DNA from: a virus
Lineage: Duplodnaviria; Heunggongvirae; Uroviricota; Caudoviricetes
Reading direction: 5' to 3' (one strand)
Virus record (IMG/VR): IMGVR_UViG_2531839640_000007
DNA: 43,851 nucleotides
Positions 7,260 through 43,851 of this stretch are shown here, one piece after another (the stretch's first letter is position 1; every line of letters begins with the position of its first letter). The position numbers were made by a program, and so were the translations under genes. Below the pieces are notes generated by a model that was given only the letters and a program-made list of their open reading frames with translations, did no database searches and was not told the DNA's origin.

Positions 7260-7402
7260 AAAAGTTGTTTTATTGGTTGTTTTAGATATAACTGGTTGTA
7301 TTTAGGATGGATTTATTTTGTGACTTGAATCGCATAGCGATAACTGAAGCGAGGTTATGGTGGTTTTTTAACGGTGTGTGTGTGATGAGGGGAGGGCAAA
7401 AG

Positions 7403-21170: not shown

Positions 21171-21196
<26 letters not shown>
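20651..21196 (+). CDS. nu1: Terminase small subunit Nu1, 181 aa
   Basis: Protein recognised as lambda Nu1 (MEVNKKQLADIFGASIRTIQNWQEQGMPVLRGGGKGNEVLYD...). Confidence 0.97.
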
Positions 21197-24876
<3,680 letters not shown>

Positions 24877-40193: not shown

Positions 40194-43100
40194 ATGGCAG
40201 TAAAGATTTCAGGTGTACTGAAAGACGGCACAGGAAAACCGGTACAGAACTGCACAATCCAGCTGAAAGCAAAACGTAACAGCACCACGGTGGTGGTGAA
40301 CACGCTGGCCTCAGAAAATCCGGATGAAGCCGGGCGTTACAGCATGGACGTTGAGTACGGGCAGTACAGCGTTATTCTGTTGGTGGAGGGATTCCCGCCG
40401 TCACATGCCGGGACCATCACCGTGTATGAAGATTCCCGACCCGGTACGCTGAATGATTTTCTCGGTGCCATGACGGAGGATGATGCCCGTCCTGAGGCAC
40501 TGCGCCGTTTTGAACTGATGGTGGAAGAGGTGGCGCGTAACGCGTCCGCGGTGGCACAGAACACGGCAGCCGCGAAGAAGTCAGCCAGCGATGCCGGCAC
40601 ATCAGCACGTGAGGCGGCAACCCATGCGACTGATGCTGCAGGCTCAGCACGCGCAGCCAGCACATCAGCCGGGCAGGCCGCGACGTCGGCTCAGTCAGCG
40701 TCTTCCAGCGCAGGAACGGCATCAACAAAGGCTACTGAAGCATCAAAAAGTGCTGCCGCTGCAGAGTCCTCAAAAAGCGCGGCAGCTACCAGTGCCGGTG
40801 CGGCGAAAACGTCAGAAACGAATGCGGCAGCGTCACAAAAATCTACAGCCACTTCTGCATCCGCAGCGACCACAAAGGCGTCAGAAGCTGCCACCTCAGC
40901 CCGGGATGCGGCGGCCTCAAAAGAGGCAGCGAAATCATCAGAAACGAACGCATCATCAAGCGCCAGTAGTGCCGCTTCCTCGGCAACGGCGGCAGGAAAT
41001 TCCGCGAAGGCGGCAAAGACGTCTGAGACGAACGCCAGGTCTTCTGAAACGGCAGCGGGACAGAGTGCCTCAGCTGCGGCAGGCTCAAAAACAGCGGCTG
41101 CATCATCTGCCAGTGCCGCCTCAACAAGTGCCGGGCAGGCCTCAGCCAGTGCCACCGCTGCCGGAAAGTCGGCAGAAAGTGCCGCCTCGTCTGCTTCAAC
41201 AGCCACAACGAAGGCTGGCGAAGCCACTGAACAGGCCAGTGCAGCAGCGAGGTCTGCTTCCGCAGCGAAGACATCCGAGACGAACGCGAAAGCGTCGGAA
41301 ACCAGCGCAGAATCCTCAAAAACGGCTGCCGCATCGTCCGCCAGTTCGGCGGCTTCATCGGCATCATCGGCGTCAGCTTCAAAAGATGAGGCGACCAGAC
41401 AGGCGTCAGCAGCGAAGGGCAGCGCCACGACAGCATCCACGAAGGCGACAGAGGCTGCTGGCAGTGCGACAGCGGCAGCACAGAGCAAAAGTACGGCAGA
41501 AACCGCGGCAACGCGCGCCGAGACAGCGGCAAAACGGGCAGAGGATATTGCATCCGCCGTGGCGCTTGAGGATGCGAGCACGACGAAAAAGGGGATAGTC
41601 CAGCTCAGTAGTGCGACCAACAGCACTTCCGAGTCACAGGCGGCAACGCCAAAAGCCGTTAAGGCCGCGTATGACCTGGCTAACGGGAAATACACCGCAC
41701 AGGATGCAACGACAGCACAGAAAGGGATAATCCAGTTAAGCAGCGCGACCAACAGCACGTCTGAAACGCTGGCGGCAACGCCAAAGGCAGTAAAAGCAGC
41801 CAATGACAATGCTGAGAAACGTCTGCAGAAAGATCAGAACGGTGCGGATATCCCTGGCAAAGACACCTTTACGAAAAATATTGGTGCCTGCCGTGCCTTC
41901 GGTGGGTCAGTAAGCACAACAACAGGAAACTGGACGACTGCACAGTTTATCGAGTGGCTGGATTCTCAGGGAGCATTTAACCATCCCTACTGGATGTGCA
42001 AGGGGTCCTGGTCTTATGGCAATAATAAAATCATTACTGATACTGACTGCGGTAATATTCATCTCGCCGGAGCTGTCATTGAAGTAATGGGGATAAAGTC
42101 AGCGATGACGATCCGCATTACCACACCGACCACCTCCACTGGTGGTGGAACAACTAACGCCCAGTTTACCTATATTAATCACGGAACAGATTATTCACCT
42201 GGCTGGCGAAGGGACTATAACTCCAGAAATAAGCCAACGGCATCAGAGATCGGGGCGTTACCGTCAGGTGGAACAGCAGTATCATCAGTTAATCTGGCTT
42301 CAAAAGGTCGGGTAACCGCGCTGACAGACAATACGCAGGGGGCAGCAGGTCTTGAGTTATACGAGGTGTATAACAACGGATATCCAACAGCGTATGGAAA
42401 TATCATTCACCTGAAAGGGATGACAGCCGTTGGCGAAGGTGAGTTACTCATCGGCTGGAGTGGTACAAGCGGTGCTCATGCTCCGGCATTTATTCGTTCA
42501 CGACGGGATATGACCGACGCAAACTGGTCGCCGTGGGCGCAGCTTTACACCTCGGCTCATCCTCCTGCAGAGTTTTATCCAGTCGGTGCACCAATCCCGT
42601 GGCCATCAGATACCGTTCCGTCTGGTTATGCCCTGATGCAGGGGCAGACTTTTGACAAATCTGCTTACCCGAAACTTGCAGCCGCTTATCCGTCAGGCGT
42701 GATCCCTGATATGCGTGGCTGGACGATTAAGGGCAAGCCCGCCAGTGGTCGTGCCGTATTGTCTCAGGAACAGGATGGCATTAAATCGCATACCCACAGC
42801 GCCAGCGCATCCAGTACGGATTTGGGACGAAAACCACATCATCTTTTGATTACGGCACTAAATCCACGAATAACACTGGTGCACATACCCATAGTATTAG
42901 CGGGACAGCAAATAGTGCCGGTGCGCACCAACACAAGAGTTCCGGTGCATTTGGTGGCACGAACACGAGCATTTTTCCTAATGGTTATACTGCGATTTCA
43001 AATCTAAGCGCGGGGATTATGAGCACAACAAGCGGTAGTGGCCAGACTCGTAATGCAGGGAAGACATCATCAGATGGTGCTCATACCCACTCGCTGTCCG

Positions 43101-43267
43101 GCACTGCTGCAAGCGCAGGCGCACATGCACATACTGTCGGTATTGGTGCTCATACGCACTCCGTTGCGATTGGCTCACATGGACATACCATCACCGTTAA
43201 CGCTGCGGGTAACGCGGAAAACACCGTCAAAAACATCGCATTTAACTATATTGTGAGGCTTGCATAA
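40194..43267 (+). CDS. stf: Side tail fibre Stf with expanded Ala/Ser-rich repeat region; reading frame broken by apparent 1-bp deletion near 42824-42827 (ORFs 40194-43007 and about 42828-43267)
   Basis: N-terminus [26 protein letters not shown]... and C-terminus ...[22 protein letters not shown] are Stf-like; frame switch inside ...[17 protein letters not shown]... Confidence 0.85.
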
Positions 43268-43851
43268 TGGCATTCAGAATGAGTGAACAACCACGGACCA
43301 TAAAAATTTATAATCTGCTGGCCGGAACTAATGAATTTATTGGTGAAGGTGATGCATATATTCCGTCTCATACAGGTCTGCCAGCAAACAGTACCGATAT
43401 TGCACCGCCGGATATTCCGGCAGGCTTCGTGGCTGTTTTCAACAGTGATGAGGCATCGTGGCATCTCGTTGAAGACCATCGGGGTAAAACGGTTTATGAC
43501 GTGGCTTCCGGCGACGCGTTATTTATTTCTGAACTCGGTCCGTTACCGGAAAATGTTACCTGGTTGTCGCCGGGAGGGGAATATCAGAAGTGGAACGGCA
43601 CAGCCTGGGTGAAAGATGCAGAAGCAGAAAAACTGTTCCGGATCCGGGAGGCGGAAGAAACAAAAAACAGCCTGATGCAGGTAGCCAGTGAGCATATTGC
43701 GCCGCTTCAGGATGCTGCAGATCTGGAAATTGCAACGGAGGAAGAAACCTCGTTGCTGGAAGCCTGGAAGAAGTATCGGGTGTTGCTGAACCGTGTTAAT
43801 ACAACAACTGCACCGGATATTGAATGGCCAACAGTACCCATTATCGAATAG
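43267..43851 (+). CDS. tfa: Tail fibre assembly protein Tfa, 194 aa
   Basis: Recognised lambda Tfa ([37 protein letters not shown]...). Confidence 0.95.

Follow-up and report, generated by a model that had tools for sequence, protein, structure and literature searches.

Ur-lambda carries four trimeric side tail fibres (Stf), which make adsorption faster via OmpC (PMC12617516). The same work describes the collar domain of Ur-lambda Stf, its proximal coiled coil (gpStf residues 102-393) and the stf frameshift of laboratory lambda PaPa. The window analysed here, i.e. the whole stretch of 43,851 nt, contains a gene of this type (stf, 40194-43267, + strand), whose host element is a lambda-like prophage integrated beside ybhC in E. 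coli O104:H4 C227-11. As in Ur-lambda, stf follows J and lom and is itself followed by tfa, according to the ORFs and the reference annotation. The gene is frameshifted in the draft sequence that we analysed; in finished genomes it comprises 3075 nt and encodes a protein of 1024 aa (WP_001387657.1), compared with 774 aa in lambda, so that an earlier remark on the sequence of this window (hereafter the preliminary description), namely that the fibre is much longer than lambda Stf, holds. The reading frame starts with the ATG at 40194 (a GTG at 40188 is an alternative), and not at 40560, from which the preliminary description had counted the gene, while the tail fibre assembly chaperone gene tfa (43267-43851, + strand, Pfam Caudo_TAP) overlaps the stf stop with its own start (TAATG).

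By sequence comparison, the stf product is an ordinary mosaic side fibre with lambda-, Mu- and T4-type parts, of a kind that is already catalogued. The gene is not new: the identical protein is present in RefSeq, fibres that are 94% identical occur in cultured phages, and homologues covering at least 80% of stf were found in 636 of 5,426 complete E. coli genomes.

Domain architecture of the fibre

The N-terminal virion-attachment domain (residues 1-134; 40194-40595, + strand) matches the Pfam family PF08400 (phage_tail_N) with an E-value of 1.4e-71 over profile positions 1-134 of 134, which agrees with the N-terminal collar domain of lambda-type Stf proteins. In the PDB the collar domain of Ur-lambda Stf (9e7m, chain Ta, and 9mgh) is matched by residues 1-94 (E = 1.3e-51), which are nearly identical to it, the overall identity of the two fibres being 72% over the aligned part.

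Residues 101-457 (40494-41564, + strand) constitute an Ala/Ser-rich stretch of 51 uninterrupted heptads of the form xSAxxAx, predicted to be a proximal coiled coil. Of the 51 units, 46 have Ala at heptad position 6 and 35 have it at position 3, and residues 116-461 consist of 38% Ala, 23% Ser and 12% Thr. The residue autocorrelation at lag 7 is 0.425, compared with 0.22 for shuffled sequences (z = 10), and the lags 7, 14, 21 and 28 give z-values of 8-10; at the DNA level the repeats are degenerate, with most spacings being multiples of 21 nt, and TRF reported in stf a single weak array (9 nt x 2.9 copies). A single-sequence AF2 model of the tract is almost all helix, with a modest pLDDT of 66. 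The tract corresponds to the proximal coiled-coil domain of Ur-lambda gpStf, and with its 51 heptads (z = 10) it has the long predicted alpha-helical coiled coil that is typical of lambda-type Stf proteins. The preliminary description spoke of many KTSETNA-type repeats, which is right as far as Ala/Ser repeats are concerned and wrong as to the unit: exact K[TS]SETNA occurs in 4 copies here (3 in lambda), and the tract is built of heptads. It also regarded the repeats as expanded, and this is true relative to lambda, which has 36 heptads. The alignment to lambda Stf reveals a stretch of 105 residues absent from the latter, i.e. exactly 15 heptads (residues 304-408; 41103-41417, + strand), which at a rise of ~1.5 A per residue would amount to ~16 nm of shaft. 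In general terms, however, there is no expansion, as the same span of 365 residues between the flanking anchors is found in StfR of the K-12 Rac prophage and in the phages PhiR42_1, mEp460_ev081, PhiR29_1 and SPF_0923; the form with 51 heptads is thus the common one, with lambda as a short variant. The tract also gives rise to long spurious ORFs, one on the reverse strand (40691-41809, 372 aa) and one in another forward frame (40591-41598, 335 aa). The gene calls of the draft contig feature a 245-aa reverse-strand gene at the tract and leave the N-terminal two-fifths of stf uncalled.

The coiled coil is followed by two Phage_fiber_2 repeats (PF03406, two stretches within 41569-41831, + strand, E = 5.2e-37), which together span residues ~462-546 (nt 41577-41831) and score 125.6 bits, far above the gathering cutoff of 22. 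The copies of the module begin at G467 (nt 41592) and G511 (nt 41724), i.e. with a period of 44 aa (132 nt), and share 28 of 44 residues; the corresponding DNA copies (41569-41675 and 41701-41807) form a direct repeat, D3, of 107 nt with 75% identity and a spacing of 132 nt. A duplicated module of 27 residues had been proposed at this place; the duplication itself is evident, while the length has to be corrected to the period of 44 aa. The first copy continues the lambda-like sequence, and the second one aligns collinearly with the constant region of Mu S and passes into a Mu S'-like segment. We infer from this arrangement that the two modules mark the mosaic joint of a lambda-like and a Mu S/S'-like part, at which the conserved motif was kept from both parents. 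A recent tandem duplication was considered as the origin of the modules and found unlikely, given a DNA identity of only 75% between the copies and the collinearity of the second copy with Mu S.

The segment similar to the tail fibre S/S' of phage Mu (residues 504-696; 41703-42281, + strand) starts with the second Phage_fiber_2 repeat and is best seen in the comparison with PDB 8ju3 (E = 1.4e-85), in which residues 504-565 of the query align to residues 111-172 of the chain and residues 539-696 to residues 178-335; 5yvq is another structure of Mu S/S'. This likeness ends at chain residue 335 of 488, and Mu's own tip is missing from the fibre studied here. Instead, residues 794-1024 (42573-43264, + strand) match the receptor-binding tip of T4 gp37 with its collar, needle and head (PDB 2xgf, E = 9e-84 over 231 residues). 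The Pfam Collar family (PF07484) was identified at residues 798-845, and seven HxH motifs, conserved as in gp37, are located at residues 866, 898, 912, 964, 978, 987 and 996, in agreement with the gp37-like C-terminal tip of lambda-type Stf proteins. The head region of the tip differs from those of both lambda and T4. Unlike whole-protein orthologues, the T4 gp37- and Mu S/S'-like sequences are modules within a fibre of the lambda type.

With Ur-lambda Stf the protein shares not only the collar domain, but also the xSAxxAx coiled coil, the PF03406 repeat and the gp37-like His-rich C-terminus. The differences are that Ur-lambda has one PF03406 repeat compared with two here, that its hinge and distal domain are replaced here by a middle part of ~250 residues, which is partly Mu S/S'-like, and that it has eight HxH motifs compared with seven here and a different head region. 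StfR of E. coli K-12 (1120 aa) has the same N-terminal domain and a heptad tract of equal length, with 94% DNA identity over 70% of the gene, but it possesses a single PF03406-like motif, and its distal part is longer and of a different kind. The closest relatives in cultured phages are the fibres of PhiR42_1 (PV340562) and mEp460_ev081 (LR597641), which comprise 1023 aa, exhibit the same order of domains and differ from the present fibre in the head of the tip (residues ~905-965), presumably the part responsible for receptor specificity.

By analogy with Ur-lambda, three Stf chains would trimerise into one fibre, and the N-terminal domains of four such fibres would make a collar of twelve subunits on the tail tip. 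The coiled coil would then give the fibre its reach, and the gp37-like tip, folded with the help of Tfa, would reversibly bind a receptor in the outer membrane and thereby speed up adsorption.

The frame break in stf

In the draft the stf ORF ends with a stop codon at 43005-43007, and the conserved His-rich C-terminus is encoded in a different frame, which ends with the TAA at 43265-43267. The two frames cross at GATTTGGGACG (42819-42829), which contains a GGG run (42824-42826, + strand, codons 877/878) that is one G short of the GGGG seen in three finished genomes. Insertion of one G yields a product of 1024 aa, and comparison of the translations showed it to be identical to RefSeq WP_001387657.1. 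The preliminary description had noticed the break near 42824 in the deposited sequence and predicted that one additional G would restore the protein, and in both respects it was correct; the crossing was placed one base off, and its other coordinates, leaving aside the gene start, slipped by one to eight bases. In the gene calls of the collection the stf ORF is divided into a fragment of 482 aa and an ORF of 82 aa. The GGG version had no match when viral_contigs was scanned for the exact pattern, and neither of the predicted products of the broken frame (937 aa and 939 aa) is on record.

The origin of the sequence is relevant here. The window corresponds exactly to a part of contig AFST01000002.2 (GCA_000220805.2), from the draft assembly of E. 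coli O104:H4 C227-11 made in 2011: three loci of this contig (L003, L004 and L019) occur unchanged within the window, of which they jointly cover 12512-16874 and 20998-43851, and the variant RusA (..SARGQAY..) and the variant tape-measure protein of the window are each recorded in this contig alone. AFST01000000 is assigned to E. coli O104:H4 strain C227-11 in a table of PMC4326458, and in PMC4334874 a single abbreviated strain label covers two accessions, AFST and AFRH. C227-11 was sequenced with an early PacBio instrument (PMC3651199); the complaint on the high PacBio error rate in PMC3651199 refers to African isolates in the same study.

When the full window was compared with the finished C227-11 genome (CP011331.1, NZ_CP011331.1), there were no substitutions, and seven indels of one base each were found, namely at 7364 (T), 14600 (G), 22411 (G), 22821 (T), 31332 (G), 31367 (G) and 42824 (G), and FDAARGOS_349 exhibits the identical set of seven differences. 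All seven indels are located in homopolymer runs, 4-7 nt long in the finished sequence. Since just 16% of the bases of the window are in runs of at least 3, this distribution is not due to chance and indicates a process of homopolymer consensus error; indels confined to homopolymers, with no substitutions relative to a high-quality assembly of the same strain, are the pattern expected of long-read consensus errors. A C-terminal query of 901 nt matched twenty complete genomes, those of O104:H4 outbreak isolates and of 55989 plus a small number of further ones, with 99.9% identity and was always aligned to 902 nt, and the exact 61-mer of the window around the site was found in 0 of the 3,167 complete E. 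coli records having a match. Each of the three finished genomes examined has an intact stf in its annotation (WP_001387657.1). We therefore regard it on these comparisons as very probable that the apparent frameshift of stf at 42824 arose as a consensus error in the draft, with one G missing from GGGG, and that the real gene is intact. A homopolymer artefact was one of two alternatives offered by the preliminary description, and it is the one borne out by the GGGG and the intact gene in the finished C227-11 genome. An instructive case is provided by the same locus in CP015887.1 (L015), which has GGGG at the site and T4 instead of T5 at position 1455, corresponding to window position 42972, which lies within stf, 148 nt downstream of the site. 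There, the deletion of a T leads via a different error to the same split into 482 aa and 82 aa, and this pattern is what assembly-specific errors look like.

The other alternative, a fibre inactivated by a genuine deletion, as has happened to stf in laboratory lambda PaPa, is very unlikely. In its favour, the deletion stands in the deposited sequence, lambda PaPa sets a precedent (J02459, with orf-401 and orf-314), and the prophage contains other real pseudogenes (terminase large subunit and rusA). On paper the two cases are alike, in that a one-base deletion divides stf into two ORFs, but in lambda PaPa the mutation is genuine and heritable and lies close to mid-gene, while the deletion considered here affects codon 877 and is not seen in finished C227-11. 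The indel was not reproduced in finished or independent assemblies: GGGG is found in C227-11 and in 19 other close complete genomes, every close relative has the intact gene, and the exact sequence of the window at the site is present in no complete genome. Moreover, it is one among seven indels, all in homopolymers, with zero substitutions in 44 kb, a density that, if real, would imply hundreds of indels genome-wide. Should the deletion nevertheless be real, the fibre would end at residue 877 and keep the first HxH motif only, losing the other six together with the head of the gp37-like tip, and its product would almost certainly be non-functional. It is likewise very unlikely that GGG is a genuine variant, carried by a minority or specific to one stock, in which slippage in the G-run switches the side fibre off in part of the C227-11 population in a manner resembling phase variation.

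A programmed -1 ribosomal frameshift at the site has a vanishingly small probability. The draft sequence GA U_UUG_GGA CG does formally match the X XXY YYZ heptamer in the correct frame, and the product of the slip would be the conserved protein (...DLGTKTT...), but the heptamer is created solely by the missing G. In all close homologues the junction is read in a single frame with GGGG, so that neither a conserved shift site nor homologues in need of a shift are found. As regards the repeats, the tract is repetitive and of low complexity and the draft was derived from error-prone long reads, and an assembly artefact with a wrong copy number in the Ala/Ser tract or in the duplicated module has therefore been weighed as well. 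We hold it to be extremely unlikely: the tract and both modules are identical base for base in the draft, in finished C227-11, in FDAARGOS_349 and in 55989, with no sign of the collapse on reassembly that the preliminary description had envisaged, and the span of equal length in StfR of K-12 and the four cultured phages named above argues against an artefact, as do the DNA repeats, which are 60-85% identical only and yielded just the one weak TRF array. Returning to the consensus error, the draft carries about one homopolymer indel per 6 kb, and its apparent pseudogenes, stf included, should not be read as biology.

Other indels of the draft and the prophage context

The remaining differences between the draft and the finished genome affect several other genes. 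The indel at 22411 disrupts the ORF of the terminase large subunit, and the indels at 31332 and 31367 are compensating (+1/-1, 35 nt apart) and scramble 11 codons of the tape-measure protein. Around 7364 a possible N-like ORF was considered, and no convincing ORF is present there in either version. The extra G in rusA and the extra T in the terminase large subunit (22821) fall exactly on genuine frameshift sites and restore the frame in the draft, both sites being frameshifted in all finished O104:H4 and 55989 genomes. The window contains 611 runs of at least 4 bases, and the chance that two random hits fall on those two runs is ~1e-4, which may reflect some ORF-aware editing or curation of the draft. 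Given these two frame-restoring indels, the errors of the draft are not purely random, and the verdict on stf is left unchanged by them. Mis-mapped reads from paralogous prophages were rejected as a source of the frame-restoring indels in the case of rusA, which has a single matching place in O104:H4 genomes.

In the finished genomes the prophage exhibits several lesions of its own. The terminase large-subunit gene is frameshifted at codon 553 of 641 (L002 21613-23537; window ~21171-23095), rusA is frameshifted (L002 14955-15316; window ~14512-14874), and a P22AR-like gene has an internal stop (L002 12788-13111; window ~12346-12669). The prophage is probably not inducible as an infectious phage, and hence adsorption assays on induced phage, which had been suggested as a check, may not be feasible. 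At window ~11448-11450 the O104:H4 prophage lacks ~1.14 kb relative to strain 55989; by this deletion a shortened emrE is fused to a shortened ybcK recombinase gene, and both are annotated as partial in finished O104:H4 genomes.

The C-terminal stf ORF of 82 aa (window 43019-43267) together with tfa is found as a remnant in many E. coli contigs (199 index blocks; loci L009-L018). In one example, next to znuA, the 82-aa ORF and tfa immediately follow a gene for the terminase small subunit, and in another the ORF is fused behind a phage_tail_N fragment of 156 aa. These remnants look like deletion derivatives of stf. Finally, the prophage carries a porin gene of its own, of the OmpC/NmpC type (window ~15669-16751, - strand). 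OmpC is the receptor of lambda Stf and of T4 gp37, and the porin gene of the prophage could have an effect on superinfection.
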